Below the pieces are notes generated by a model, which was not told the DNA's origin, did no database searches, and saw only the letters and a list, made by a program, of their open reading frames with translations. A DNA stretch of 64,000 nt from the NCBI GenBank assembly GCA_964482135.1, contig CAYZWF010000005.1, positions 4,025-68,024 on the forward strand, in the 5' to 3' direction. Numbering within the stretch: position 1 is the first letter of the stretch; every line of letters starts with the position of its first letter. A program made the translations under genes and the position numbers. This document shows positions 13,425 to 64,000 of the stretch, one piece after another. The stretch comes from an uncultured Rhodospirillaceae bacterium. GTDB taxonomy: Bacteria; Pseudomonadota; Alphaproteobacteria; UBA11136.

Positions 13425-15389
13425 ATGCTGTCGAATAGACCCACCTTTTATCTGGGCCGTTTTTTCGATGGGTTTCATGGGGGGGGAGCCGGCGCTCGGG
13501 CGCTGATCCTGGGTCTCGCCTTGGCCCTTTCCGCCACCGCCCCGTTTCCCGGAAAAGCCGATTCCAGAGGCCTTCTTTCCAAAGAAGGGCTTTCCAAGGA
13601 CGGGAAAGCCGCCGCCGCGCGTGACACCAGAGGCGCCGAAGTGGCGGTGCTGGAGCCTTCCGGCATATCGACAGAACAGATAGTCCCCCTGCCCCGGCCT
13701 CTGAGCGCGGAGGATGAAGGGCGCTATGGGCGTATCTTCCTCCACCAGGAGGCCGGTGAATGGAAGAAAGCGGACCGCCTCATAGGACAGCTGAACAACC
13801 GAATTCTGATGGGCCATGTGCTCTATCAGCGCTATATGCACCCCACCAAATACCGTTCCAAATACAAGGAATTGCGGGACTGGATGGCGCTCTATGCGGA
13901 CCATCCCGGGGCGCGGAAAATCCATAGCCTAGCGCTGAAGCGCCGCCCCGAAAATTACAAATATCCAAAACAGCCGGTGGGCGGTTATTTCTACGGCAGG
14001 GGCACCGACCCCGGCGCCCAGGTGGAAAGCGTTTACGTCTCGAAACGCAAGCGTACAAGGGATCAAAAGGCCCGGGTGACGGCTCTGAAACGCTCCATCA
14101 AACGTTCTGTCCGCCGCGGCGGCCCCACCAAGGCCAAGAAAATTCTCATGGAGAGCCGGGACCGCAGCCTGCTCGACACCACCGAAACCGACCATCTGCT
14201 CTCGGCAATCGCGGCCGGATATTTCGCCGCCGGCAAGGATGCCTTGGCATTGAGCATCGCCGGCGCCGTGGTCAAGCGTTCGGGCATGCGCGTGCCCCGC
14301 GCCTACTGGACGGCGGGGCTGGCGTCATGGCGGCTGGGCCAATTACCCGATGCCGCCCGCCATTTCGAGCCCCTGGCCCTGTCCGACAAGGCTTCGGGGT
14401 GGAGCGTGGCCGCCGCCGCCTATTGGGCGGCGCGTGCCCATCTGCTCACCCGCCAGCCGCAAAAGGTCAACCACTGGCTCAATATCGCCGCCCTTCACAG
14501 CCGCACCTTCTATGGCCTTCTGGCGCGCCGCAATCTGGGTCTTCCCACCTATTTCAACTGGAAAACGCCGCCCCTGACCGAGACCCGGGTGGCGCGCCTG
14601 ATATCGGTTCCCGGCGGAGAGAGAACCCTGGCCCTGTTGCAGCTGGGCCGCCACAGCATGGCCGAGAAGGAACTGCGCAAGATCTACCCCCGGTCCAACT
14701 CTCCCCTGGCTGATTCCCCCTTGGCCGGCGCGGTTTTGGCCGTGGCCAGCAGCGCCAACCTGCCGGGACTGGCCATGCGTATCGGCGCCGAATGGGGCGA
14801 CGACCAGGACATTCCTAATGACGACGCCCTTTACCCGACGCCGAACTGGGCGCTCGACGGCGGCAAGAACGTGGACAGGGCGCTGGTTTTTTCCATTATC
14901 CGCCAGGAATCGCGGTTCAATCCCAACGCTAAAAGCCATGCCGGGGCCCGCGGGCTGATGCAGATCATGCCGCGCACGGCCAATTTCATCGTCGGCAAGA
15001 AGAAGTTCCGTGGCAAGGCGCGCGATCTCCTGCTCAACCCCGAACTTAATATATCACTGGGCCAGACCTATCTGCGGCAGCTTCTCGATCACGAAAATAT
15101 CGGCGGCAATTTGTTCCTGCTGGCGGTGGCCTATAACAGTGGCCCGGGGAACCTCGCCAAGTGGCGGCGCAAAATGAAATACCACAACGACCCGCTGCTG
15201 TTTATCGAGTCCATCCCCAATTCGGAAACCCGCGCCTTCATCGAACGGGTGCTGACCAACCTGTGGATTTACCGCAAGCATCTGGAGCAGCCCACGCCGT
15301 CTCTCGACGCCATTGCCGCCGGTGACTGGCCGCTTTACGCGCCCCTCGACGGAACCGGGATCAAGGTGGCGCAACATGGCGGGAATTAA
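13425..15389 (+). CDS. Soluble lytic murein transglycosylase (SLT domain); start uncertain
   Basis: [41 protein letters not shown]. Confidence 0.9.
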
Positions 15390-36725: not shown

Positions 36726-39053
36726 CTAGTCAGGCGTCGAAGAAGCACCGCCACCGGCCCGGCTCACGGCGTCCACCACCCGCGCCGGAGTGAGCAGTTC
36801 CGGCAGCACCATGCCCTGGGGCGCGGCGGGACCGTAGACCACGTTGAAGGGGATACCGAAACGCCCGAAACCCGCGAGATAGGCGGCGATATCATCGTCG
36901 CGGCGGGTCCAGTCGGCGCGCATGGCGATGACGCCGCCCTGATTGGATGAGTCGGATGGATCGGATGGAGCGCCCAGCAATTGGGTCACCTCGCCGCGAT
37001 CGAGGGCCAGCTTTTTATTGACCTGGCAGGTGAGGCACCATTCGGCGGTCACGTCCACCAGCACCACCCGCCCCGAGGCCACCAAGGCGGGGATGGCGGC
37101 GGGGTCGAAGGGCTGCCAGAGATGGTCGGACTGTGATGGCGGCGGCGGCGGGGCTACCGTATTCTCGAAGCGGCCCGGCGCAATCAGCACCATCAGAATC
37201 AGGAGTCCCGCCGCCACGCGCAGGAAAGGACGCGGCAGGATGGTCCGGGGCTTGTCTCCGGCAAGGCCCCACAGCACCACCCCCAGCGCCAGCAGCAGGA
37301 CCGACACCAGGGCGGCGGCATCCACCGAGACCTGCGCCGCCAGAACCGAAACCAGCCACAAGGCGGTGAGCGCCAGCGCCAGGCCCAGCAAGCGGCGCAG
37401 GGTCACCATCCACGGCCCCGGATGGGGCAGCCGCACGGCCAGTTGCGGCGCCGCTACCATGGTCAGATAGGGGGCGGCGAACCCCAGGCCCAGCGCCGCA
37501 AAGACGGCATAGGTCTCGAATGCGCCACGGGCCAGGGCGAAGCCGATGGCGGTGCCGAGAAAGGGCGCCGAACAGGGCGTCGCCAGCAGGGTGGCGAAGG
37601 CCCCGGTGAGGAACTGTCCCTCGATGCTGTGGGGCCGGGTCTGGGAATGGCCGCTGTGGCGCAGGGCGAGGTCGCCCATCCAGCCGGGCAGGGGAATTTC
37701 GAAGAAGCCCCACAGATTGCAGGCGAACAGGGTCAGCACCACTGCCATGGCGGCGAGAAAGACCGGCTGTTGGAACTGGATGCCCCAACCCACGCTGAGC
37801 CCCGCCATGCGCAGCCCCACCGCCAGCGAGGCCAGCACCATGAAGGTGAAGAGAATCCCCGCCGAGGTGGCGAGGAAGCTGCGCCGCACGGCCCCGGTCT
37901 CGCCGCCGCCGTGACCGATGACGCCGAGCAGTTTCAGGGACAGCACCGGCAGCACGCAGGGCATGAGGTTGAGGATGAGCCCGCCCAAGAGGGCGATGGC
38001 GAGAATGCCGGCAAATCCGCCAAGCCCGTTGGTCTCGGTCCCCGCCGTCACGGTGAGCCGCGCTTCCAGCGCCCGCGCCGGGGGAGCTTCGGCAGCGCTT
38101 TCAATATCACTTTCAACGATAGTCACGGTGAGGGGCAACCCCACGAGGGAGGCGGTTTTGCCGTCGTCTTGCGGCGATGCCGGACCCATCCCCGCCGCCA
38201 TGGTCAACACCGCCACCCGGCCCCCGGCCAGGGAGCGCAGTTTCGGCGCCCCGGCCCAGAATCCCGGCGGGCCTTCCACGAAGGTGTCGAGAGCGCCGAA
38301 GGGAGTCCCCGAACGGGCGGTAATGCGGAGCCGGGTCTTGTCTCCCGCGCCCAGCGCCTCCACCCGCTCCACGGCCAGTTCGCCGCCCTCATGGGGGCCC
38401 GGCACCAGCGCGCGGTAGCGGTCGATGAGGGTGGCGAAGGGAGTGGGCGTAGCGTCCCCCGACGGCAGGTCCAAGGCCAGATCGGCGCGGCGCGGAATGC
38501 ATATCTCCTTGCAGGTGAGGTAATCCACCCGGGCGTTGAGGGAGAGCCCCCGGCCCGGCTTTTCGAGCCGCGCCGTCACCGGCAGCACCACCGCCTTCTC
38601 ATAGCCCACGGTCTCCAGCCCATAGGCCGAATAGCGGCGCGGCGCCGGCCAGAAGAGTTCAGCCGCCGCCAGATTGGCCGAGCCCGACCAGTCCACCTGG
38701 GGCGGCAGCCCGGCATCGCCCGGCGAGCGCCAATAGGTTTTCCAGCCCGGTTCCATGCGGAATTCCAGCCCTAAGGAAATGCTGTCTTCTTCTCCGGTGG
38801 CGGTCATGGCGGCGATGAGACGCACCTTGCTCTCCTCTACCTCGGACCAGGGTGAGGCGGCCTGAGAGCTTTGTGAACCTTGGGCAGCGGCGGCGGGCGA
38901 CGCGCCTGAGAGAGCGAGGAAAGCGGCCATGAAAAAGGCCACGAAAGCGGGGCCTAGCGAGGAAAAAAACAATCGGGACATGAAACATGGGGCGACTCGT
39001 CGCCACTCCTTATGAAGTCTTAAACTTTGCATTGCTATACTACAGCCCGTCAC
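36726..39053 (-). CDS. DsbD/ScsB-like protein-disulfide reductase; start uncertain
   Basis: WKTYWRSPGDAG, CKEIC, LNLMPCVLPVL, LATPCSAPFLG, TAEWCLTC. Confidence 0.9.
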   Translation of the reverse strand: MTGCSIAMQSLRLHKEWRRVAPCFMSRLFFSSLGPAFVAFFMAAFLALSGASPAAAAQGSQSSQAASPWSEVEESKVRLIAAMTATGEEDSISLGLEFRMEPGWKTYWRSPGDAGLPPQVDWSGSANLAAAELFWPAPRRYSAYGLETVGYEKAVVLPVTARLEKPGRGLSLNARVDYLTCKEICIPRRADLALDLPSGDATPTPFATLIDRYRALVPGPHEGGELAVERVEALGAGDKTRLRITARSGTPFGALDTFVEGPPGFWAGAPKLRSLAGGRVAVLTMAAGMGPASPQDDGKTASLVGLPLTVTIVESDIESAAEAPPARALEARLTVTAGTETNGLGGFAGILAIALLGGLILNLMPCVLPVLSLKLLGVIGHGGGETGAVRRSFLATSAGILFTFMVLASLAVGLRMAGLSVGWGIQFQQPVFLAAMAVVLTLFACNLWGFFEIPLPGWMGDLALRHSGHSQTRPHSIEGQFLTGAFATLLATPCSAPFLGTAIGFALARGAFETYAVFAALGLGFAAPYLTMVAAPQLAVRLPHPGPWMVTLRRLLGLALALTALWLVSVLAAQVSVDAAALVSVLLLALGVVLWGLAGDKPRTILPRPFLRVAAGLLILMVLIAPGRFENTVAPPPPPSQSDHLWQPFDPAAIPALVASGRVVLVDVTAEWCLTCQVNKKLALDRGEVTQLLGAPSDPSDSSNQGGVIAMRADWTRRDDDIAAYLAGFGRFGIPFNVVYGPAAPQGMVLPELLTPARVVDAVSRAGGGASSTPD

Positions 39054-39202
39054 AGCTTCACAGAAGGTTTCACAAGCTCACAGCCTTTCACTTTTAAGTG
39101 TTGCATGACCGGGACCACTTGCCCCGCGGCGCCTCATGCTGGTACCATGGATATGCTGCGAGATAACGCCCCGCCATTCTTAGGATTGGAAATTATTCAA
39201 AG

Positions 39203-39784
39203 ATGGGCCGTTCCATAAAAGAGGATATGCCTTCCTATCTCGATGGGGATCTTCTCATCGCCATGCCGCAGATGCGCGACCCCCGCTTTTCCCAGTCCGT
39301 CATCTATATGGTGGCCCATTCCGACGACGGCGCCATGGGGATCGTTCTCAACCAGATGATTGATTCCATCACCTTTCCCGACCTCTTGAAACAGCTCGGC
39401 ATCGCGCTTGAGCGCGAGGAACAGATCATCGGCATCCATTGTGGCGGCCCAGTGGAAAGCGGCCGCGGCTTCGTGCTTCATTCCCCCGACTATCATCAGG
39501 AAGGCACCCTGGAACTTAATTCGGAAATCTGCCTCACTGCCACGGTGGAAATCCTGCGCGCCATCGCCGCCGGACAAGGCCCCCGCCAATGCATGCTGGC
39601 GCTGGGCTATGCGGGATGGGGGCCGGGCCAGCTCGAATCGGAAATCCAGTCCAATGGCTGGCTCCACGCGCCCGCCGACAGCAAGCTGGTGTTCGACGAC
39701 GACCTCTCCAATTTATGGGAGCGGGCAGTGGCCAGCCTGGGCATCGATCCGTCCATGCTTTCCGACGACGCCGGCCACGCCTGA
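39203..39784 (+). CDS. YqgE/AlgH family protein
   Basis: [45 protein letters not shown]. Confidence 0.92.
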
Positions 39785-40129
39785 GACTGGTTTGCCCCGC
39801 CTGAGGCTGGGCCACGCCCGAGGGGTATTCGCAGCCCATTTGAAGGGTGTTCCCACCCCGCTCATTTCAATCTAAGTTATTGAATTAAAACGAATCTGCC
39901 GCCGGAAGGCGTGAAAATGTTAACATTTGTCATCATTTGTTAACATGCCGCGCCAAGGACGGGCGCGCAGCCCAGGCCAGGTGCGGCTTACGCGGAATTG
40001 TGCGGCGTGGAAATTCACCGTTCCAATGTTAACATGTGAGAGGGATATGGGTTGGCAATGGCGCGGCGCACTGCGCCCCTACACATCAAGTTCCACGCCG
40101 GAGAGGCCGTAAAGACATCGTTTTAAAAC

Positions 40130-40438
40130 TTAGGCCTCAACAAGTGCGTCCAAAACCTCTTTGGGTTTTCTTTCCAGGGCGGTTATGAGCACCCGAGCCG
40201 TCCGGTTTGGTTTTCTGCGCTGTTTCTTGCGCTCCCAGGATTGAAGTGTCGAAAGTTTGAAGCCAAACATATCCGCGAATTGTTTCTGTGAGAGCGCAAG
40301 GTTTTCCCTGACGGATTTTACGTCAACGTCTTCCGGAACTTTCAGGGCACGGATATGGACCCGTGAGTCATCTCCATCCAGGTAGGCGGCAATATCGGCG
40401 CGAGCCTCTTTGATTGATTGACGTAATGTACCGGTCAT
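40130..40438 (-). CDS. XRE-family HTH antitoxin (HigA2/YiaG-like)
   Basis: MTGTLRQSIKEA...VDVKSVRENLALSQKQFA..FG..LSTLQSWER; ATGA overlap with toxin stop. Confidence 0.8.
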   Translation of the reverse strand: MTGTLRQSIKEARADIAAYLDGDDSRVHIRALKVPEDVDVKSVRENLALSQKQFADMFGFKLSTLQSWERKKQRRKPNRTARVLITALERKPKEVLDALVEA

Positions 40439-40773
40439 TTGGCCCTCCGTTTCTTGCTGTCCTTGATCAACTTGGTGATTTTCTTCAGTTCCGCCTTCTC
40501 GTTCTCCGTTAAATCCGTTTTTCGATTTTTTGGATAACAAGCCAGGAAAAAAACCTCGCTATCACCGGAATGGAAATAATAAATCAGCCTTGACCGGCCC
40601 CCGGTTCCGAACTGCCGTATCTTTCTGGCGCCGCCGGTTTTAGGGACAACGCCGCCCAACTCCGGATTAAGCGCCAGTTTCGTCTGAACGGCCTCCATAT
40701 GCCGCGCCGTGAACACCCCGCGCATTGCTTTTTTGAAAGCCTTCGGAGTGATGAATATTATTTTACGTCACAT
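40435..40773 (-). pseudogene. RelE/HigB2-like toxin with in-frame TGA at codon 2 (intact ORF only from ATG 40725)
   Basis: ATG TGA CGT AAA ATA ATA TTC ATC ACT CCG AAG GCT TTC in frame with NPELGGVVPKTGGARKIR...RLIYYF...FFLACYPKNRKTDLT. Confidence 0.65.
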
Positions 40774-40790
40774 AGTATGAACTATATGAC
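40767..40790. promoter_or_regulatory. Inverted-repeat operator at the TA promoter
   Basis: GTCACATAGT-N4-ACTATATGAC (9/10 pairing); TATAGT lies 7 nt before ATG 40773 on minus strand. Confidence 0.6.
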
Positions 40791-41031
40791 AATGTCATAC
40801 AATCCCCCAAAAAAAACGAGGCCCATAAGATGGTTACGAGTCATATAGGGCCCAGGAATCCGCAGATTTAGGTATTCCCCCCCGGAAGCGGGCGCACTGC
40901 GCCCCTTGATTAAGGAGTATATTCCTATATTGGCGGAGGAATGTCAAGGAGAACATGGCGGGGGGACGGATCAACCGGGGAGAAGTTTCATGCCGGCGGT
41001 GCCTGTGACATCCGCGCAAGGGATGAAACGG

Positions 41032-41436
41032 CTATTTCCTGTCCCAGCCACTCCAATTCATACTCTTGGGCTTTATTACAGAGCTGGCGTTGATTTCGTT
41101 GAGCGTTTCCGACAGGTGCAGGAGAACCTTCAGCATTACCGGGTCCATCTTGTCCAGCCGCGCCTTGAAAGCTTTCTTGGAAATAGTTACCAGGGAGCAC
41201 TTCTCCGTTGTAACCGCCCCTGCATTGCGGGGAACATCATTGATCAGAGCCAATTCACCGAAGATGCTGCCCTTGCGCAGAGTCGCAATGGTTCGCGGGT
41301 TTTCAGTTCGCGTACCCTTGCGAATTTCCACGCTTCCTTCGCTGATCATATAGGCCGCATCGGGCATATCCCCTTCGTCGAAGACCATCTTGTTGGCCTC
41401 GAGGGTGATTTTCTTGAATGCTTCCGAATGCGGCAA
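41032..41436 (-). CDS. Stand-alone cyclic-nucleotide-binding domain protein
   Basis: VFDEGD..D.AYMISEGSVEI, GSIFGELALI..PRNA. Confidence 0.85.
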   Translation of the reverse strand: MPHSEAFKKITLEANKMVFDEGDMPDAAYMISEGSVEIRKGTRTENPRTIATLRKGSIFGELALINDVPRNAGAVTTEKCSLVTISKKAFKARLDKMDPVMLKVLLHLSETLNEINASSVIKPKSMNWSGWDRK

Positions 41437-41600
41437 CGGTACCCCCCAGTCGTCTTCGTATTAGAGGGGCATAATTCTTAATAATCACTTACCAGAATCA
41501 GCCGAAGACCGCGGCGCCAGTTGCCGCAACCGCGGGGGTTTTTGCGTTCCGATGAATGTCTGCCTTGGGTCAGGGTTCGTTAAGGACGGCGCAGCAGCGG

Positions 41601-41694
41601 CTAGCCGTCGCCGTCGCCCGCCGTATCCGCCTTGTCCAAATCCTCACGCAGCATGGCGAAGGTGTAATGGTCGCACCAGCGGCCGTCGATGCGC
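41601..41694 (-). pseudogene. Displaced copy of the 3' end of the RimJ-like GNAT gene
   Basis: Encodes RIDGRWCDHYTFAMLREDLDKADTAGDGDG*; 41635-41694 matches 42445-42504 at 55/60 nt. Confidence 0.85.
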
Positions 41695-41753
41695 GGATTC
41701 CGGACATGTCTCTCGGATGTGGCCCCCCGGGAGACATCAGATACATTTAATGC

Positions 41754-41782
41754 TTGCCATATTATAGATAACATAATATGTT
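41754..41782 (+). promoter_or_regulatory. higBA promoter/operator
   Basis: TTGCCA-N17-TATGTT overlapped by perfect IR CATATTAT-N7-ATAATATG (41758-41780); ATG 41789 would be leaderless. Confidence 0.65.
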
Positions 41783-41788
41783 GTGCTT

Positions 41789-42064
41789 ATGATAAAGTCC
41801 TTCGCCACGGGCCGCACCGAAAGGCTTTTTTCAACGGGGAAGCCCATTAAGGGCGTGGATACCGACATTGCTCTGAAGCGGCTGGACGCGCTGCGCGCCG
41901 CCAAAAGTCTACAAGACATATCGCCGCTGAAAAGCGTCGGACTGCATAAGCTGGGCGGGGACCGCAAGGGTCAATGGGCCATGAACGTCAACGGACCATG
42001 GAGGGTTTGTTTCCGGTTTCGCGCCGGCGACGCCTATGACGTGGAAATTACCGATTATCACTAA
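41789..42064 (+). CDS. higB: HigB toxin (RelE/ParE superfamily)
   Basis: MIKSF, LHKLGGDRKGQWAMNVNGPWRVCFRF, VEITDYH. Confidence 0.92.
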   Translation: MIKSFATGRTERLFSTGKPIKGVDTDIALKRLDALRAAKSLQDISPLKSVGLHKLGGDRKGQWAMNVNGPWRVCFRFRAGDAYDVEITDYH

Positions 42065-42099
42065 GCTCCAACTATCGGCAGGCCAAGGAGGGCCGTCAC

Positions 42100-42390
42100 A
42101 TGACACGAATTAAAACACATCCCGGAAGCATTCTGCGGGAGGAACTGGAGGCGCGGAATCTTTCCGCGAACGCCCTGGCCCGCGCATTGCGCGTTCCACC
42201 AAATAGAATAACGGAGATACTCAACCAGGATCGCGGCATTTCACCGGATACCGCCCTACGTTTTTCGAGATATTTTGAAACCAGCGCCGAATTCTGGATG
42301 AATCTGCAAACCGCCCATGATTTGTCCGTTACCGAACAGGAGCATGGAGAAAAAATAGCCGCCGACGTAGCCGGTGCGACGGCGGCCTAG
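42100..42390 (+). CDS. higA: HigA antitoxin
   Basis: HPGSILREEL, LARAL.VPPNRITEI, ISPDTALRFSRYF.TSAEFWMNLQ. Confidence 0.93.
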   Translation: MTRIKTHPGSILREELEARNLSANALARALRVPPNRITEILNQDRGISPDTALRFSRYFETSAEFWMNLQTAHDLSVTEQEHGEKIAADVAGATAA

Positions 42391-56918: not shown

Positions 56919-57452
56919 ATGAATTACAAAAAAATCTTTGTCGGCACGGTGTGCGCCCTGTCCGCCCTGTCCGCCATAAACGCATATGCGGAGGGGAATC
57001 CCGAATATGTCAAATTCCCCACGGGTTACGAGACATCCTTTGCCAACTACACGACCATGAACCGTGACGGTAAAGAGCAAGTGGCAAAGATGTATGCCAA
57101 CGACGCCGCCATATCCAGCTACAAAAAGGGGCAGACGGCGGCTCCGGGTTCCGTTGTCGTCATGGAAGTCTATAAGCCCAAAAAAGACGCCGATGGTAAA
57201 TCCATTGTGGGCAGTGACGGCATCTACGAAATTGGCAAGCTCGCCGCGGTCGCCGTCATGGAACGGAGGGACGCATGGGAGGCCGCGTATTCACCGGATC
57301 ACAGGCTGGGCAATTGGGGATTCGCCATATACAAACCCGATGGCACCCCAAAACCCAATAAGCTGGCTTGCGTCGAATGTCATTCACCGCTGGAAGATGA
57401 GGATTTTATCTTCTCCTATCAACAGCTTATGGATTACGTGAAGTCCAATTAA
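56919..57452 (+). CDS. Cytochrome P460-superfamily protein (c'-beta-like)
   Basis: Signal peptide, FP.GY, GSVVVMEV, GNWGFA, single C-terminal CVECH, DFIFS. Confidence 0.8.
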   Translation: MNYKKIFVGTVCALSALSAINAYAEGNPEYVKFPTGYETSFANYTTMNRDGKEQVAKMYANDAAISSYKKGQTAAPGSVVVMEVYKPKKDADGKSIVGSDGIYEIGKLAAVAVMERRDAWEAAYSPDHRLGNWGFAIYKPDGTPKPNKLACVECHSPLEDEDFIFSYQQLMDYVKSN

Positions 57453-57583: not shown

Positions 57584-58177
57584 TCAATTCTTGCGCAGGA
57601 CCACCGCTCCTTGTGCGAGGCTGGCATCGAGGTCGGTTTCGGGAGCTTCCTTGTGGACCAGGTTCTGGTGACAGTCGATGCAGGTCGCCCCTTCCGTTTC
57701 CATCTTCTTATGGGCCTTTTTCGCCGATTTGCCAGCCCCGCGCGGGTTCTTGTGGCAGCCGCGGCAGGTGATGCTGTCCCAGTCCTTCATCAGCATCCGC
57801 GCCTTGTGGGCCATTCTCAGGCGGTGCTTGTTGAATGCCTTCTTGGTCGAATAGTCGTCGACCAGTTCGTGGTAGATGGCGCGGGTCCCGTCGATTACGT
57901 GGGTAGCGAGCGCAAGGTGGAAGTTGGCGAGACCCTTGGGTATATGACAATCACTGCATTCCGGCTGGGCCCCCATGGCGCCGCGGTAGTGGGTGGATTT
58001 CTTGAATTCCTCGGCCGGGTAGGTCATGGAATGGCAGCCGACGCAAAAGCCGGTGCTTGAAACCGCCGCCTCGCCGCCCAGGACGATAGCCAGCAAGGCC
58101 AGCATGCCACCGGCGCCCCAAAGCAGCGCGCCCAGATTGCCGGTAATGTATCGCCAGATTTTCGTCATCCTTGGCAT
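57584..58177 (-). CDS. cycB: Tetraheme membrane cytochrome cM552 (NapC/NirT family)
   Basis: N-terminal TM; CVGCH, CSDCH, CRGCH, CIDCH; last gene of the hao cluster. Confidence 0.9.
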   Translation of the reverse strand: MPRMTKIWRYITGNLGALLWGAGGMLALLAIVLGGEAAVSSTGFCVGCHSMTYPAEEFKKSTHYRGAMGAQPECSDCHIPKGLANFHLALATHVIDGTRAIYHELVDDYSTKKAFNKHRLRMAHKARMLMKDWDSITCRGCHKNPRGAGKSAKKAHKKMETEGATCIDCHQNLVHKEAPETDLDASLAQGAVVLRKN

Positions 58178-58189
58178 CGGCCTGTAACG

Positions 58190-58894
58190 CTATTCCTTGG
58201 GAATGGGTTTCGCTTTTTCCTGGAATTCATCGTGAAACGGCGGCGTCGGCGGCCCGGTGAAGGTCCCTTCCAGCTTGAAATGCCCGTGCATCGCCTTTTC
58301 ATTTCGCACCGCCTTTTCGAAATCGAAGGTGTATTTAGGGTCAACCTTGGGCGTGAAGGGGGTGTATGGCTTCTTGGCGCCGGACCACCCCGACCCCTCG
58401 TAGTTGAGGTGACAGCCCTTACAGCGCTCGATGAACTCGAATTCCTCCCCCGCCTCCACCAGCACCTGGCGGGGAGTGGTCGTGCCCTCGTTCTCGAAAG
58501 CGATGCCGGCCTTGCGGTGGACGAGCCGGTAATCGAGGCCGGGGCCGTGGCAGGATTCGCACCCTACCCCCACCAAATATTCGCTGGGGTCTTCCATGTC
58601 GTAACCGCCCTCATGGCTGAAACCGGTGGTGTGGCAGGCCACGCATTTTTCGTCCTCTGTGTATTCTTTGTCCGGGTCCAGCCCCGCCTTTTTCTTGGCC
58701 TCGGCCTTTTCACCGGCGGCCAGCGACTTCAGCGCCTTGGCATGCGCCGTCTGTTGCCAGGATTCGAACTCGCTTTTGTGGCAGCCGCCGCATTTCTTGC
58801 GGCCCTCGAACTCAAACTCTTCGGCAGTGGCGGCAAATGTCCCGAAAGCAAGAATGCAGACGGCAAATGCGCTCAGGAAGACAGCCCGGGACAT
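58190..58894 (-). CDS. cycA: Tetraheme cytochrome c554
   Basis: FEGRKKCGGCH, CVACH, GVGCESCHGPG, CKGCHLNYEGS.W.GAK.PYTPFTP.VD.KYTF, closely matching Nitrosomonas c554. Confidence 0.93.
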   Translation of the reverse strand: MSRAVFLSAFAVCILAFGTFAATAEEFEFEGRKKCGGCHKSEFESWQQTAHAKALKSLAAGEKAEAKKKAGLDPDKEYTEDEKCVACHTTGFSHEGGYDMEDPSEYLVGVGCESCHGPGLDYRLVHRKAGIAFENEGTTTPRQVLVEAGEEFEFIERCKGCHLNYEGSGWSGAKKPYTPFTPKVDPKYTFDFEKAVRNEKAMHGHFKLEGTFTGPPTPPFHDEFQEKAKPIPKE

Positions 58895-58989
58895 CTTTCG
58901 TACCTATGAATTGGAAAACCTATCCACGACTTCTGGCCCTATCGTAGGCGCATCCGATGACCCTTCGTTAGTGCCAGGAACTAATATTT

Positions 58990-60045
58990 TTATAGGGCCG
59001 GAGGCGTTGTTTCGGTCTCGGCCTCTTGCTCCGCCGGCGGCACCCTGTAGACCCAGAAGTCGCCGTGCTGGTAGACCAGTTCGATCTCCGTAAGCTCCAT
59101 GGGCCGCGAGTTGGTAAACGGCAATGCCTGGGCAAGCAGAGTCCGGGAAGAGGCCTCGTCGGTCAGGAAATAGACCCGGACCACCGTCTTGCCCAGCCGT
59201 TGCGTGGTGTAGTTCTCGTAGCCCTCTTCTTTCAGCCATTTCTTGATGGAGGAGGCCATTCCGTGGGCGTCCTCGCCCTTGGCGAAGTCCTTGAATCCAA
59301 TACCGAAGCGTTCCGGATACAAGGCCCCGACCTTGTAAGTGTCCTGTACCGAGAGGACCAGGAAGGACTCGCGGCCACCGACCAGGGCGCGTAATTTTTC
59401 GGCCGCCGCCGCCTGGCGGTCGGTAAGCAGGGCCTCGGTGAATTGTTCGAACAGGACTTCGCCGGATTCTCCCTTGTTGAGATTCCAGAAGCTGCGCTCC
59501 ACGGCCTTGATGGGCTTTTGATACCTGTTCCACGATTCGGGCAACAGAACGGGTTGCGCCAGGTGGCGGTCGAAAAGAACGTCGATCCCCGCCAAAAGCT
59601 TCAAGCGGCGGGATATGTCCCACCAGCCGATCACCGGCGCCCCCTCGGGCGCGTGTTCGCGGATGGCCTCGGCAAGGACCGCCGTCTCGGAAACATCGCT
59701 GGCGGCGTTGATCACCGGCTCGGCGAGATAGTTTCGCCAATCGAGGAGGACAGGCTCGCCTTTATTCCGGGCGGCGGTGTGAAAGACGGCGATGGGTTTG
59801 TCTATTTGATCCACCCGCAGTTCGTATTTGCGGATAACCAGGTTCGGACTGTCCACGCCGCCTTCTCCCGCCAGCCCCAGATCAGGGAAAGCCTCGACGC
59901 CTCCTTCTTCGACCATGGTGTAGACGTAAGGCGCTTTCTGGGGCGTCGGCTGGAAAATCGACCACGCCACCCATCCGCCCAAGAAGAACCCTCCTGACAC
60001 CAGGAGAATTCCGGCTGTCAGGAGGGTTTTCCGATTGCCCGTCAT
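58990..60045 (-). CDS. haoB: Hydroxylamine oxidation protein HaoB
   Basis: N-terminal TM, PVLLDWRN..AEP, GWWDISRRL.LLAG, YGDF-like tail; lies between haoA and cycA. Confidence 0.82.
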   Translation of the reverse strand: MTGNRKTLLTAGILLVSGGFFLGGWVAWSIFQPTPQKAPYVYTMVEEGGVEAFPDLGLAGEGGVDSPNLVIRKYELRVDQIDKPIAVFHTAARNKGEPVLLDWRNYLAEPVINAASDVSETAVLAEAIREHAPEGAPVIGWWDISRRLKLLAGIDVLFDRHLAQPVLLPESWNRYQKPIKAVERSFWNLNKGESGEVLFEQFTEALLTDRQAAAAEKLRALVGGRESFLVLSVQDTYKVGALYPERFGIGFKDFAKGEDAHGMASSIKKWLKEEGYENYTTQRLGKTVVRVYFLTDEASSRTLLAQALPFTNSRPMELTEIELVYQHGDFWVYRVPPAEQEAETETTPPAL

Positions 60046-60101: not shown

Positions 60102-61829
60102 TCATCTGATATCCTCTCCCATGTCTTCTTTTTTGCGTCCGCGGCGCCACCCCCATAGAGCGAGAGAGCCGACCAGCAGCATGCCGCCGCCGCCGACGCC
60201 AAGGGACGCCTTCTTAAAGAAGGTGTCGAGTTTGGGCAGATCGCTGCGCTTGCCTCCTTCGAGTTTAGCGATCCTGTCTTTCAACGACGCCATCTCGCGA
60301 ATCCGGGTGTTTTCGTCCTGGATTTCGGCATAGGCCCCCATTAACGGCGCCCAACCATTCGAGTAGGTGTAGTTGCCCGGATTGAAGTGGGCGAGACCCT
60401 TGTAGAGCTTGATCAGGTCGTGTTCCCACATCTCCGTGTAGACGCGGTCCATATGCGTCGGGTTGTTGTCCTTGGCCCAGAACAGACCGTAGAAGCCGCC
60501 GGGGGCGTCTTTTTCAGGCGCTGGAGGCGGTGGGCGGTTGGTTTTCTGGCCAACCATCAGACCGTCGGCATAGAGCTGTTTGACCACCTTTCCGGCCTCT
60601 TGTTCCACCTTGAGCCCTTGTATGGAGCCATTGTCGATTTGGCTGAGCCTGGCCCTGGTAAAGCTTTCGGAGTGACAGTTGGTACAGGTCTTGACCCAGG
60701 CTTCCTGGCGCGACGTGAACCATTTGTGATCCAGGTTGTCGGCGATCGCCGGCTGTGGGTTAAAGCCCCAGCGCACCTTGCGCACCAGGTTGTGTCCGAA
60801 CTTGCCCTTGTTCTCCATGTGACAGAAGGCGCAGGTCGGTGAGGTCTGGCCGCCCTTGTCGATGGCGTCCTTGAGGGGCACTTCCCAGTTCCACTCGTCG
60901 CCGAGCAACTGATAAATGGTGCCGTGTTTGGACATCATGTAGTTCTCGAACTCGTTATGATCGACGCCGTTGTGGCAAATGCCGCAGGCCTGGGGCTTGC
61001 GCGATTCGGCGGCTGAGAACTGGTGCCGGGTGTGGCAGGTGTCGCACTTGTTCTGGTTGATGTGACACTCGGTGCAGCCTTCGGCGACATCCCGTTGTTC
61101 CATGGCGGCCCAGATCGCCGTTTCCACGTTGGCCTTGTAGTCGAGGGCGTGGGACGGACGGCCCTTCGGCCACTGGTCCTGGGGCCAGTTCAGGGTGTCG
61201 CGTTCGGATTCGCGCTCGGCGAACTCCTGGAGATGGCAGGTACCGCAGACGTCGGCGGTGGGCATGCGCAAATCCTTGCGGTGATCGCCTTTCTCGGCCA
61301 AGACTTCGACGTGGCAATCCATGCACATGACTTCATTCAGCTGTTCCTTGGCGCCGAGCTTGCCAAGGGAGCGCAGGTTGTCTTCGACTTCTTTTAATTT
61401 TTTCTTCTTGTAGGCTCTGGGGTCGCCGTCGGACAGGTTGCGGATAGCGTTGATGTCGGCGTGCACGCTCTTCTTCCATGCGACGACGGCGCCGGGTGTT
61501 TCCTTTTCGTGGCAGCTTATGCATTCGGAACGTGTCGAGACGTCCTTCACCGATGTGGGTGGCTTGTAGAAGCTCAGCGGATCGAGATAGGAACTCATGG
61601 GGATCGGCTCCCAGTACTTTGCGAGAGTCCCCTTTCCGGCTCCCTGTTCGGGATCACGGTAACGTTTCTTCAGCGCATTATAGAGATCCTTCGGCGGCGC
61701 CGATTTCGACACCCCAAGGGCGTCGTAAAGCTCGTTGGGAATATCGGCCACGGCCTCTCCGGCCAAGCCGGCCATCCACGAAATCGCCACGGCCACAGCC
61801 GTCGTCCTCGTCCAAAACAGGATCCGCAT
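60102..61829 (-). CDS. haoA: Octaheme hydroxylamine oxidoreductase (575 aa)
   Basis: GGAGG RBS before ATG 61829; signal peptide; 8 CxxCH; GAGKG...YWEPI, WP.GRPSHALDY.AN, CHNGVDHN, HFNPGNYTYSNGW; C-terminal TM anchor. Confidence 0.95.
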   Translation of the reverse strand: MRILFWTRTTAVAVAISWMAGLAGEAVADIPNELYDALGVSKSAPPKDLYNALKKRYRDPEQGAGKGTLAKYWEPIPMSSYLDPLSFYKPPTSVKDVSTRSECISCHEKETPGAVVAWKKSVHADINAIRNLSDGDPRAYKKKKLKEVEDNLRSLGKLGAKEQLNEVMCMDCHVEVLAEKGDHRKDLRMPTADVCGTCHLQEFAERESERDTLNWPQDQWPKGRPSHALDYKANVETAIWAAMEQRDVAEGCTECHINQNKCDTCHTRHQFSAAESRKPQACGICHNGVDHNEFENYMMSKHGTIYQLLGDEWNWEVPLKDAIDKGGQTSPTCAFCHMENKGKFGHNLVRKVRWGFNPQPAIADNLDHKWFTSRQEAWVKTCTNCHSESFTRARLSQIDNGSIQGLKVEQEAGKVVKQLYADGLMVGQKTNRPPPPAPEKDAPGGFYGLFWAKDNNPTHMDRVYTEMWEHDLIKLYKGLAHFNPGNYTYSNGWAPLMGAYAEIQDENTRIREMASLKDRIAKLEGGKRSDLPKLDTFFKKASLGVGGGGMLLVGSLALWGWRRGRKKEDMGEDIR

Positions 61830-62019
61830 AAGTACCTCCCCACTCCCGCCGCAAAAACCGCGGACGGGAAAAAATTTAAGCGAGCATGAATGAGTTTCAG
61901 AAAAACCGCGAACGGGCGTAAGGACCAGCTTCTGAAAAAGGCATGGGCCACTGGCTCCATGGGTTTCATGGCGCCGATGAATCCATAACCAAGGCCTTGA
62001 GAAGAATGATGTTTGGTAA

Positions 62020-62090
62020 ACTGGCCCAAAGTATATTTCAACCACTGGCACTATCCTGGCGGCCAATAACGGATATAATGTTGGGCCAGT
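62020..62090. promoter_or_regulatory. Candidate MocR operator in the hao/MocR divergent intergenic region
   Basis: ACTGGCCCAA (62020-62029) and TTGGGCCAGT (62081-62090) form a perfect 10-bp IR; extra ACTGGC at 62044 and 61950. Confidence 0.6.
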
Positions 62091-62143
62091 CGCTGAATTA
62101 TTTGCTGACTGGGAGCTACAGGAGACCCGGTTGAAGGGGGGGG

Positions 62144-63712
62144 GTGTCCGTTTCCATGCAATTGCCACTGAAAGTCTACCACGGCAAAAAACAGCCACTC
62201 CAGACGCAGATATTCGATCAAATCCGCGGATTAATCCTGGAGGGCCGGCTGAAGCCGGGCACGCCGATTCCCGCCACCCGCGCCCTGGCCGAACAGCTGG
62301 GCGTTTCGCGCAACACGGTCACCCTTGCTTACGAACAACTGATCATCGAAGGCTATCTTCAGACCCGCAGGGCGGTCGGCACCTTCGTCAGTTTCGATTT
62401 ACCGGCGTCGTCCCTGTTATCGGACAGCGGTGAGGCCGTATCCCATGACAATTCCGAACGGCTGATCGACCGCCAACCCGTGCGCTTCCGGGGCACTCCC
62501 CATCCGGTCGTCAACCGCAACCGTCACAACCTCGCGGTCGATTTCTGGGTGGGACGGCCCGATGCCAGGTCTTTCCCTTCAAAGACTTGGCGGCGCCTGC
62601 TCAATCGGGAGCTTACCCACCCCAGCTCCAGCCTCACGGAATATGGGGAGCCGGGAGGGCTGCCCGCCCTGCGCCAGGCCATAGCCGATCATCTGGGGCC
62701 TGCCCGCGGCATTTCCACGACACCGGAACAGGTGATTATCGTCGCCGGTTGCCAGGAGGCGCTGAACGTCGCGGCGCGTCTTTTCGTCGGCCAGGATACT
62801 CCGGTGGTCGTCGAAAACCCCTGCTACCAAGGGGCCTCGAACCTCATGGAGAGTTACGGCGCCAGGCTGATCCCGGTTGCGGTCGACGGTGAGGGCCTGG
62901 ACGTCGCCCAGCTGCCCCAGAAACCGGTCAGCCTTGCCTATGTGACACCGTCACACCAATACCCCATGGGGGCGACACTTTCCCTGGAACGCCGGTTACG
63001 TTTGTTGGATTGGGCGTGGAAAACCGGCGCCTATATCATCGAGGATGACTATGACAGCGATTTCCGATACGACGGCTCGCCGTTAACCGCGCTGAAGGGC
63101 TTGGATAAGCGCGGCTGTGTCATTTACATGGGGACTTTTTCAAAGTCGGTTGGCGCCGGTATCCGGATCGGCTATCTGGTGGTTCCCCGCGAACTCGTCG
63201 AGCCGGCGACCACCGTCAAGGCCCTGCTGGATAACGGTCATCCCTGGCTCGACCAGGCGGTGCTCGCCGATTTCATTTCAAGCGGCACCTTCTCCAACCA
63301 TCTCCGGCGAATCCGGTACACCTATAAACTGCGCCGCGACTGTCTCATTGAGGCCTTGGGCAGGCACTTTGGAGACGTGGCGTTGTCCGGCGTTATGGGA
63401 GGCATGCATCTGGTTTGGCATCTGCCGCGGAGCTTCCCGAAGGCAAAAAAACTCCAGGAGATGGCGCTGGATCGCGGTATCGGCATCTATTCGCTGCAGG
63501 ACGGAGCCGCCAGCGTCTTCGGAAGCAATAACTTTGACGAGCGGGCAATCATGCTCGGCTATTCGTCGACCTCGGAAAAGCAAATCCGCGAAGGCATAGC
63601 CCGAATCGCCAAGGTCGTTCCCGTGAAGCGGAGGGCCCAGCCGTCCGGTGCCGACAATTTATTTTTCTCAAGCCGCAAAAAACCCGGACCGGCCCTCAAC
63701 GCCAGACAATAA
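62144..63712 (+). CDS. MocR/GabR-family PLP-dependent transcriptional regulator (start 62144 or 62156)
   Basis: GntR wHTH (LAEQLGVSRNTVTLAYEQL..EGY) plus aminotransferase-like domain (YVTPSHQYP.G, IIEDDYDSDF, YMGTFSKS). Confidence 0.93.
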   Translation: MSVSMQLPLKVYHGKKQPLQTQIFDQIRGLILEGRLKPGTPIPATRALAEQLGVSRNTVTLAYEQLIIEGYLQTRRAVGTFVSFDLPASSLLSDSGEAVSHDNSERLIDRQPVRFRGTPHPVVNRNRHNLAVDFWVGRPDARSFPSKTWRRLLNRELTHPSSSLTEYGEPGGLPALRQAIADHLGPARGISTTPEQVIIVAGCQEALNVAARLFVGQDTPVVVENPCYQGASNLMESYGARLIPVAVDGEGLDVAQLPQKPVSLAYVTPSHQYPMGATLSLERRLRLLDWAWKTGAYIIEDDYDSDFRYDGSPLTALKGLDKRGCVIYMGTFSKSVGAGIRIGYLVVPRELVEPATTVKALLDNGHPWLDQAVLADFISSGTFSNHLRRIRYTYKLRRDCLIEALGRHFGDVALSGVMGGMHLVWHLPRSFPKAKKLQEMALDRGIGIYSLQDGAASVFGSNNFDERAIMLGYSSTSEKQIREGIARIAKVVPVKRRAQPSGADNLFFSSRKKPGPALNARQ

Positions 63713-63771: not shown

Positions 63772-64000
63772 TCAGTCACCCTCATGGAGGCGGTCGAATT
63801 CGCCTTTTTCGAATTCGATGAAGCTGTCGATCATACGCCGGAACACGGCCTCGGCGATGCCGGGCGCCAGCCCCGCCTGTTCGGCCTTCGCGCGCATGCG
63901 GGTGATGATGTCCTCGATGCGGGCGCGGTCCACCACGCCTTCGCGCGAGGGCTTGAAGCGCGCCGCCTCGCCCACATAGAAGCTACGTTCGGCCATAAGC
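63772..64000 (-). CDS. Chorismate mutase type II / isochorismate-pyruvate lyase-like protein (partial, runs off the window)
   Basis: AER..YV.EAARFK, V.D.ARIE.II...R..A...GL. Confidence 0.7.
   Translation of the reverse strand, partial: LMAERSFYVGEAARFKPSREGVVDRARIEDIITRMRAKAEQAGLAPGIAEAVFRRMIDSFIEFEKGEFDRLHEGD

Follow-up and report, generated by a model that had tools for sequence, protein, structure and literature searches.

A Conserved MocR-Family Regulator Gene beside hao, with Operator-Like Boxes before haoA, cycA and Its Own Gene: A Probable Dedicated Regulator of Hydroxylamine Oxidation

Introduction

The closest described relatives of the regulator considered here are GabR of Bacillus subtilis and PdxR, both members of the MocR family of transcription factors that depend on pyridoxal 5′-phosphate (PLP). 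In GabR, the DNA bends around the bridge between the operator repeats, which allows both domains of the winged helix-turn-helix (wHTH) type in one dimer to bind the ATACCA repeats (PMC4756830), and treatment with 50 mM hydroxylamine removes the PLP of GabR as an oxime, for the purpose of cofactor removal (PMC11669113). A third protein, DnfR, had been named in an earlier sequence-only reading as a MocR-type regulator of the dnf cluster of Alcaligenes, and this is borne out by the literature (PMC9136411, PMC12575085). In the present study, we analyzed a 64,000-nucleotide stretch of DNA (hereafter, the window) from an uncultured Rhodospirillaceae bacterium (GCA_964482135.1, contig CAYZWF010000005.1, positions 4,025 to 68,024), in which a MocR-family gene lies next to haoA, the gene for octahaem hydroxylamine oxidoreductase (HAO). 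To our knowledge, and in the literature searched, the hao genes and the ammonia monooxygenase (AMO; amo) genes of ammonia-oxidising bacteria (AOB) have no described transcription factor of their own, and the way in which these cells adjust HAO capacity to the toxicity of hydroxylamine matters for the emission of N2O and NO. On the basis of comparative sequence analysis, we consider it likely that the protein is a dedicated, PLP-dependent transcription factor of haoAB, of cycAB (the genes for cytochromes c554 and cM552) and of its own gene.

The Regulator Protein

The two genes at the center of the analysis were located as follows.

62156-63712, plus strand: MocR-family regulator gene (mocR), 518 amino acids, with a GntR-type wHTH and a fold-type-I aminotransferase-like domain
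60102-61829, minus strand: haoA, octahaem HAO of the oxidative type (PF13447, 499 bits)

The head-to-head arrangement of the two genes, noted in the sequence-only reading, was confirmed, with a gap of 326 bp between them. The N-terminal domain of the regulator (PF00392, 64.9 bits, residues 16-78) aligned to the wHTH domains of GabR and PdxR, and the C-terminal domain, connected to it through a long linker, matched PF00155 (86.7 bits, residues 139-447). Among sequences from the Protein Data Bank, the best match was PdxR (7pq9, 230 bits, E 7e-67), with GabR (4n0b, E 1e-63, and 4mgr) at approximately 219 bits. The PLP lysine, K330 in the motif GTFSKS, aligned with K312 of GabR and was invariant across 27 orthologues, as were N204, D297/D298, Y299, S329/S331 and R337; from general knowledge of fold-type-I aminotransferases, we take N204, D297/D298, Y299 and R337 to have roles in the PLP site. 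An N-terminus beginning MQLP was common to the orthologues. Judged from its sequence, the product of 62156-63712 is a genuine MocR-family protein with a PLP lysine.

We then considered the family names that automatic annotation would assign. The regulator scored 453 bits against the NCBIfam PdxR equivalog model NF052282 (cut-off 320), and the Prokaryotic Genome Annotation Pipeline (PGAP) labels the Nitrosovibrio and Nitrosacidococcus orthologues PdxR. The same model also accepts a paralogue that is 32% identical to the window protein and a sister clade linked to an ABC transporter (the proteins of loci L113, L012, L088, L090 and L001 passed), and for this reason it does not discriminate. No pdx gene (pdxS, pdxT, pdxA or pdxJ) was found at the end of the window or in any related context whose genes were read; the end of a gene at 63772-64000, convergent with the regulator, was called by eye from its translation as chorismate-mutase-like. 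We therefore rejected the PdxR label, and the PdxR name on the hao-linked orthologues is probably an over-propagated annotation. Membership of GabR was not indicated either: the score against the GabR model NF052285 was 305 bits (cut-off 600), and in the alignment R207 and R430 of GabR, which we take to be the residues that bind the carboxylate of γ-aminobutyric acid (GABA), corresponded to an invariant G226 and to V454 (Asp in most orthologues). No linkage of the regulator to gabT or gabD was seen.

Linkage of the Regulator Gene to hao

Orthologues of the regulator were considered at 54-70% identity, and a scan of the genome collection with the MocR protein gave at least 8 useful loci. An orthologue adjoins hao in 9 of the 10 contexts with readable flanks, and the regulator-hao arrangements are of three kinds, namely divergent, tandem after cycB, and convergent. 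The gene is divergent from haoA in Nitrosococcus halophilus, Ca. Nitrosoglobus terrae, two JGI contigs (70% identity) and Thioalkalicoccus limnaeus (haoAB only), and it follows cycB in tandem in a Rhodocyclaceae metagenome-assembled genome (MAG), the Betaproteobacteria CG2_30 MAG, a Gammaproteobacteria MAG (Bin_33) and Nitrosovibrio sp. Nv4. All four of a further set of hao contexts (a Thioalbus-type one, a Rhodospirillales MAG, a Ca. Desulfobacillus denitrificans-type one and a 5.25-Mb genome) also had the orthologue, and the layout in the Rhodospirillales MAG was exactly that of the window. The gene immediately downstream of the mocR orthologue is a cytochrome P460 gene in Nitrosococcus and Nitrosoglobus. 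The linkage that had been proposed for examination in other genomes was thus found to be conserved, in three arrangements and in many lineages, which ties the regulator functionally to hao.

The sequence-only reading had further held that the hao operons of classical AOB are not known to have such a neighbor. This premise was wrong: N. halophilus, Ca. Nitrosoglobus terrae and Nitrosovibrio sp. Nv4 carry the gene beside hao, and it is absent only from the clusters of the Nitrosomonas type. Moreover, a 'GntR' gene, Noc_0891, is tabulated between cytL (Noc_0890) and haoA (Noc_0892) of Nitrosococcus oceani in Table 1 of Stein et al. 2013 (PMC3772326). Noc_0891 is most likely the orthologue of the window regulator; the N. 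halophilus and N. watsonii orthologues show 60-63% identity with the protein of the window.

MocR proteins at 46-48% identity, from Xanthobacter, Bradyrhizobium and Pseudomonadales, were not linked to hao. Members of this clade (L012 6794-9919, L014 4177-5499) stand beside an Urt/Liv-type ABC transporter (Peripla_BP_5, 526 bits), which suggests a small nitrogen compound as their effector. In a neighbor-joining tree, the hao-linked proteins clustered together, and the clade also included three Bradyrhizobium/Xanthobacteraceae sequences. Strict monophyly of the hao-linked proteins is not supported by this tree, because the deep hao-linked branch L160 pulls these three sequences in.

Several further observations were made on the neighborhoods of the orthologues. 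In Nitrosovibrio sp. Nv4, the regulator lies between the hao cluster and a convergent amoCAB, and the same layout was found in a Nitrosospira-like metagenome contig. The Nitrosospira/Nitrosovibrio orthologues (L008, L009 and most matches) are nearly always on contigs of 1.6-2.5 kb; these isolated contigs of approximately 2 kb are explained by the flanking of the regulator by multicopy hao and amo repeats, which break short-read assemblies. In the Rhodocyclaceae/Desulfobacillus-like tandem loci (L005/L006, L173, L174), ccm genes for the maturation of cytochrome c follow the regulator directly, giving a hao-cycAB-mocR-ccm block in organisms that are not known nitrifiers. Behind the regulator of the two closest relatives (70% identity; L087 7551-8777 and the P0002 contig) stands a gene for a class I/II aminotransferase, which is missing from the window. 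Finally, a second MocR protein, the one 32% identical to that of the window, is encoded divergently from haoAB on high-GC metagenome contigs (L113 564-2033, L142 4267-5670), and here a PLP-dependent regulator may have been recruited to hao independently.

Putative Operator Boxes before mocR, haoA and cycA

The 326-bp gap contains the perfect inverted repeat described in the sequence-only reading, ACTGGCCCAA at 62020-62029 and TTGGGCCAGT at 62081-62090 (100% complementary, 51 nt between the arms), and the two additional ACTGGC copies reported there were likewise found at 61950 and 62044. Counted over the two strands of the 64 kb, there are 47 copies of the hexamer ACTGGC, which gives an expectation of approximately 0.1 in the 141 bp that hold the 4 copies. 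That these elements are not random follows from the conservation of motif, spacing and position across species, and this cross-species conservation is the sole proof.

An unbiased enumeration of 8-mers over 9 regulatory regions from 6 organisms placed TGGCACCA/TGGTACCA at the top, with 21 matches in 9 of 9 regions against 2.5 expected from coding DNA. The consensus box, TGG(C/T)(A/G)CCA, is quasi-palindromic, and the ACTGGC of the sequence-only reading is its left half. With a position weight matrix (PWM) built without the window, 2 of the top 7 matches in the 64 kb fell in the 326-bp gap (p 5e-4). The elements recognized in the window are listed below.

62020-62029, plus strand: site A of the operator next to mocR, ACTGGCCCAA, forming the left arm of the inverted repeat; aligns with GTGGTACCAG of L005, L007 and L089
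62044-62053, plus strand: site B of the operator next to mocR, ACTGGCACTA; the Betaproteobacteria MAG L007 has an identical CACTGGCACTAT
62074-62079, plus strand: TATAAT, candidate mocR -10 box, read from the sequence, directly before site C
62081-62090, minus strand: site C of the operator next to mocR, which reads ACTGGCCCAA on this strand and forms the right arm of the inverted repeat; aligns with ATGGAACCAG of L005 and L007
61944-61959, no strand assigned: haoA-proximal paired boxes, TGG-GCCA at 61944-61950 and TGGCTCCA at 61952-61959, approximately 115 bp from the haoA ATG
61921-61928, minus strand: haoA-proximal box, TGGTCCTT (AAGGACCAG on the plus strand), 24 bp promoter-proximal of the paired boxes
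61985-61992, no strand assigned: degenerate distal box, ATAACCAA, 33-34 bp from 61952, a weak call
58933-58976, minus strand: candidate third operator in the haoB-cycA gap, CCTGGCACTAA -36- TAGGGCCAGA, a B/C box pair as in the mocR operator

Upstream of mocR, the alignments showed an architecture of box A, 24 bp, box B, 35 bp, box C, with a TATAAT-like element just before box C. Among the spacings counted upstream of mocR over the loci, the 24 bp from start to start between sites A and B is the most frequent (11 counts), and the distances of 35 bp from B to C and 59 bp from A to C are each recurrent (6 counts each); the span of the operator from A to C is 71 bp. Site B was the fifth best match in the 64 kb to the PWM built from other loci only, and its sequence, ACTGGCACTAT, is identical in the window and in the betaproteobacterial MAG. 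TATAAT or TCTAA is kept at the candidate -10 position in L171, L172, L094, L005 and L007, and the TATAAT at 62074-62079 is a candidate promoter element of mocR; a simple scan of 61700-62300 for sigma-70 promoters and terminators gave nothing, the TATAAT at 62074 having a poor -35.

Upstream of haoA, the architecture was box, 34/35 bp, box, 9 bp, box, approximately 110 bp before the start codon, often with a further box 24 bp nearer the gene. The paired boxes at 61944-61959 align with cTGGc.CCAtTGGCACCAt, found approximately 110 bp upstream of haoA in L087, L005, L007, L016 and L089, and the box at 61952 was the sixth best PWM match in the window. At the position of 61921-61928, AAG(A/G)ACCAG is invariant in 5 divergent-type loci, and the 24-bp spacing is recurrent upstream of haoA (6 counts). 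The degenerate box at 61985-61992 stands at the place of the distal cTGGCACCAG of other loci, with the ACCA half alone kept. Over all loci, histograms of the box spacings peaked at 9, 24, 34/35 and 59 bp.

The boxes were also found to accompany the regulator gene. At least two boxes within 300 bp upstream of haoA were present in 13 of 18 loci with the regulator and in 2 of 51 loci without it (Fisher 2e-8), and in 13/18 versus 2/23 when the controls were limited to a GC content of at least 0.57 (4e-5), a comparison that is confounded by kinship and GC content. In 9 of 13 regulator-linked loci, a box was located upstream of cycA at a distance of 72-112 bp, and all Nitrosospira-like loci have the triple box CGGTACCA-9-TGGTACCA-24-TGGTGCTA before both haoA and cycA. 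In the tandem-type loci, the boxes recur upstream of haoA at up to 4 kb from the regulator gene. Boxes before mocR, haoA and cycA, taken together and on this comparative basis, have the form of a MocR-type operator, that is, short direct and inverted repeats approximately three helical turns apart at the presumed promoters of the regulator and of its targets. The ACTGGC copies can accordingly be read, from the motif conservation across loci, as part of a conserved multi-site operator with the mixed direct and inverted layout that had been suggested for them.

Boxes of the same kind were seen near amo. In Nitrosovibrio sp. Nv4 (L090), TGGTACTA, TGGTACCA and TGCTACCA lie within 47 bp at 15206-15252, approximately 240-280 bp upstream of amoC (14154-14963, minus strand), and the other triple-box clusters of this 21.5-kb locus stand only before haoA and cycA. 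From this sequence pattern, amoCAB may also belong to the regulon in the Nitrosospira lineage. In the window itself, the top single PWM match was TGCTGGTACCATGG at 39137-39150, between a DsbD-like cytochrome-c-biogenesis gene (36726-39053, minus strand) and a small open reading frame (ORF; 39203-39784). This box near 39140 was rejected as a target, as it is isolated and at approximately the chance level for an 8-mer in 128 kb (both strands).

As TGGCAC is the consensus of the sigma-54 -24 element, the boxes could in principle be sigma-54 promoter elements, or the site of another factor, with MocR binding elsewhere. A single match with 2 mismatches to TGGCAC-N5-TTGCW starts at 62046, on the mocR strand; neither the window nor the aligned loci have a -12 TTGC at the right distance, no match lies in the haoA direction, and the window as a whole has fewer matches than shuffled sequences. 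The occurrence of the boxes in threes at 9, 24 and 34-35 bp, also before mocR, a spacing equal to that of GabR, and the tracking of the boxes with the presence of the regulator gene also speak against this explanation. We rejected the sigma-54 reading, and we regard this explanation as a whole as very improbable.

The other explanation to be weighed is that the protein is an ordinary PdxR-type regulator of vitamin B6 synthesis, or the regulator of an unlinked regulon, which stands beside hao by chance, the repeats also being due to chance. The NF052282 score, the PGAP naming and the weakness of the repeat statistics within the window favor it. Apart from the lack of discrimination of that model and the absence of pdx genes described above, the linkage of the regulator to hao survives three gene arrangements, and boxes persist upstream of haoA even at kilobase distances from the regulator gene. 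We consider this explanation extremely improbable.

Several observations nevertheless weigh against a regulator dedicated to hao. A perfect non-overlapping 10-nt inverted repeat arose in 4.9% of the Markov-1 simulations of the gap, and some hexamer reached 4 copies in 30% of them; the repeat statistics within the window are marginal, and two of the four sites named in the sequence-only reading, 62020 and 62081, had poor cross-species PWM scores. No hao was found within 10 kb of one orthologue, that of L088 (genome of 5.2 Mb), whose own upstream boxes are partly kept. Among the metagenomic hao loci, 16 of 80 had the orthologue, or 8 of 20 with enough DNA on both sides, the 80 loci being a pattern-limited, non-random sample. 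The Nitrosomonas-type loci, whose HaoA is 76-80% identical to that of N. europaea (GC 41-50%) and which are presumably from Nitrosomonas, had no orthologue in 16 evaluable downstream and 6 evaluable upstream flanks, and these hao clusters have neither the regulator gene nor the boxes; they and most high-GC clusters with haoAB only manage without the regulator. To these points may be added the confounding by kinship and GC content noted above, and the literature searched, in which we found no binding or expression studies of the window protein.

The hao Module in the Window

The genes that would be controlled form the remainder of the hao module, and a cytochrome P460 gene stands next to them.

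58990-60045, minus strand: haoB (TIGR04392 haoB_nitrify, 328 bits, cut-off 200)
58190-58894, minus strand: cycA, cytochrome c554 (PF13435, 94.7 bits; NF043010, 339.7 bits, under the cut-off of 400)
57584-58177, minus strand: cycB, cytochrome cM552 of the NapC/NirT type (PF03264, 154.5 bits)
56919-57452, plus strand: cytochrome P460 gene, convergent with cycB (PF16694, 91.6 bits)

HaoA has a signal peptide, 8 CxxCH motifs and a C-terminal transmembrane helix. It was assigned to the oxidative type because it matched the N. europaea HAO (6m0p/4fas) over its full length with 751 bits and because the tyrosine at the cross-link position of the N. europaea enzyme (Y489, NYTYSNGW) is kept, as it is in 20 of the 20 HaoA sequences compared. 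With this octahaem HaoA, HaoB, a c554 and a NapC/NirT-type domain, haoAB-cycAB constitutes an oxidative hydroxylamine module of the nitrifier type. No amoCAB was found in the 64-kb window, and no boxes were found upstream of the P460 gene of the window. The genes surrounding the module (GC approximately 60%) are housekeeping genes, including cox-SURF1-thrC-M16 peptidase, ATP synthase, SMC and MutY; a region at 39100-42300 has a low GC content (0.53 versus approximately 0.62 around it) and short ORFs only.

In the presumed leader of haoA, the direct repeat AAAAACCGCG(G/A)ACGGG occurs twice, at 61853-61868 and 61901-61916, 48 bp apart. The haoA-proximal copy can form on the mRNA strand a local hairpin, CCCGUCCGCGG-UUUUU-GCGGCGGG, right before the ribosome-binding site. 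The fold of the whole leader was no better than those of shuffled sequences (z -0.82), and an Rfam search of the haoA-mocR gap gave no match at E<=1.

Proposed Mechanism and Effector

By analogy with GabR and PdxR, a head-to-tail dimer would place its two wHTH domains on TGG(C/T)(A/G)CCA boxes 34-35 bp apart, and an alternative binding register, chosen by the effector, would come from the further boxes at 9 or 24 bp. The array at 62020/62044/62081 brackets the candidate -10 box and the presumed start region of mocR, and because box C abuts the candidate -10, the protein would be expected to repress its own gene. The array at 61921-61992, approximately 90-160 bp upstream of the haoA start codon, and that at 58933-58976, upstream of cycA, would be in positions like those of an activator, provided that the transcripts begin a few tens of bases upstream of the start codons. 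Of this scheme, the family membership, the conserved PLP residues, the gene linkage and the boxes, with their spacings and positions and their co-occurrence with the regulator, are observed directly, and we infer that the protein binds DNA, in which direction it regulates, where the promoters lie and what the effector is.

Hydroxylamine is, of the single candidates, the most likely effector and is chemically plausible, in keeping with the earlier suggestion of PLP-oxime formation as the signal. It would also agree with the absence of the arginines that bind the carboxylate in GabR. It is the one metabolite common to all the gene partners, namely HAO, P460 and, in Nitrosospira, AMO. Hydroxylamine is small, largely uncharged at neutral pH and membrane-permeant, so it could reach a cytoplasmic sensor. 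In the least secure step of the scheme, hydroxylamine would attack the internal aldimine of Lys330 and PLP to give a PLP oxime; this might free the lysine in the way that the GABA external aldimine does in GabR, and so bring about the activating mode. As a whole, the proposal that hydroxylamine acts through a PLP oxime to switch on hao, cycAB and perhaps amo in Nitrosospira is put forward only tentatively.

Some points speak against hydroxylamine as the signal. The formation of a PLP oxime is generic to PLP proteins and could inactivate the regulator rather than signal to it. In N. oceani, NH4+ and NH2OH raise the transcripts of haoA, haoB, cycB and cytL to about the same extent (PMC3772326), which fits a hydroxylamine signal and equally a signal of energy status. 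Against the scheme as a whole, the Noc_0891 transcript itself hardly changed (1.9x and 1.15x) in the same study (PMC3772326).

It is quite possible, if rather short of probable, that the regulator controls hao in response to another effector: an amine or amino compound that would form an external aldimine, PLP itself through its pool as in PdxR, or none at all, the domain serving for dimerisation only. In keeping with this, every MocR effector characterised so far is either an organic amine or PLP (GabR, PdxR), the ligand of DnfR was still unknown in 2024 (PMC11440038), the regulators of the two closest orthologue loci have the aminotransferase gene right behind them, and the sister clade stands beside its transporter for small nitrogen compounds. 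An amino-acid effector is argued against by the Gly226 and Val454/Asp at the positions of the GabR carboxylate-binding arginines R207 and R430. In addition, the downstream aminotransferase gene is not conserved in the other loci, no B6 genes lie near the regulator, and its constant partners are solely hydroxylamine-handling enzymes (HAO, P460).

Were the hydroxylamine proposal and the dedicated role to hold, the regulator would be the first transcription factor dedicated to the nitrification genes of bacteria and also the first case of a MocR protein that has an inorganic nitrogen species as its effector, and the same chemistry would have been recruited independently by DnfR in dirammox bacteria and by the second MocR lineage beside haoAB. 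That 32%-identical lineage hints at repeated recruitment of MocR proteins to hydroxylamine enzymes. The regulator is in any case a concrete, widely conserved and testable candidate with defined DNA boxes, and its presence beside AOB-type hao modules in many non-nitrifiers points to inducible scavenging or detoxification of hydroxylamine.

Comparison with Known Systems

No study assigning a function, operator or effector to a hao-linked regulator of this kind was found in the literature searched; in the 2013 table, Noc_0891 of N. oceani appears as a GntR transcriptional regulator with expression ratios only, with no operator, effector or function proposed.

DnfR, the activator of the dnf (dirammox) genes of Alcaligenes, resembles the window regulator, as far as the available description goes, in being a MocR-type protein on a pathway that produces and consumes hydroxylamine and in having multiple binding sites (Xu et al. 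2022, 2023, as cited in PMC12575085). It differs in its targets: dnfABC are unrelated to hao, and no dnf genes were seen in the contexts read. DnfR and the hao-linked regulator may be independent recruitments, with the 32%-identity MocR of L113 and L142 as a third case.

The likeness to PdxR (e.g., of Bacillus clausii, 7pq9) lies in the absence of the arginine equivalent to GabR R430, PdxR having Leu, and in the operator. No pdxST or other pdx gene lies near the window regulator; the carriers of the regulator are Proteobacteria, which generally use the B6 pathway dependent on 1-deoxy-D-xylulose 5-phosphate. The PdxR operator consists of two direct repeats and one inverted repeat, with the use of the boxes varying with the PLP state (PMC10450172), and here sites A and B are direct and C is inverted, over a span of 71 bp versus 48 bp in PdxR.

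With GabR (4n0b, 4mgr), the window regulator shares the two-domain architecture, the GTFSKS context of the PLP lysine and a gene divergent from the target operon. Its box pairs, 35 bp from start to start, recall the ATACCA repeats of GabR, which are separated by a 29-bp bridge and lie over both promoters (PMC4756830). The box itself contains (T/C)ACCA, and by analogy the effector would be expected to act at the PLP aldimine. The differences are that equivalents of R207 and R430 are missing (G226, V454/Asp), that the target is a periplasmic multihaem respiratory module rather than an aminotransferase operon, and that there are at least three boxes per operator and at least three operators. The regulator is neither GabR nor a bona fide PdxR; it is a new, probably hao-dedicated member of the MocR family.

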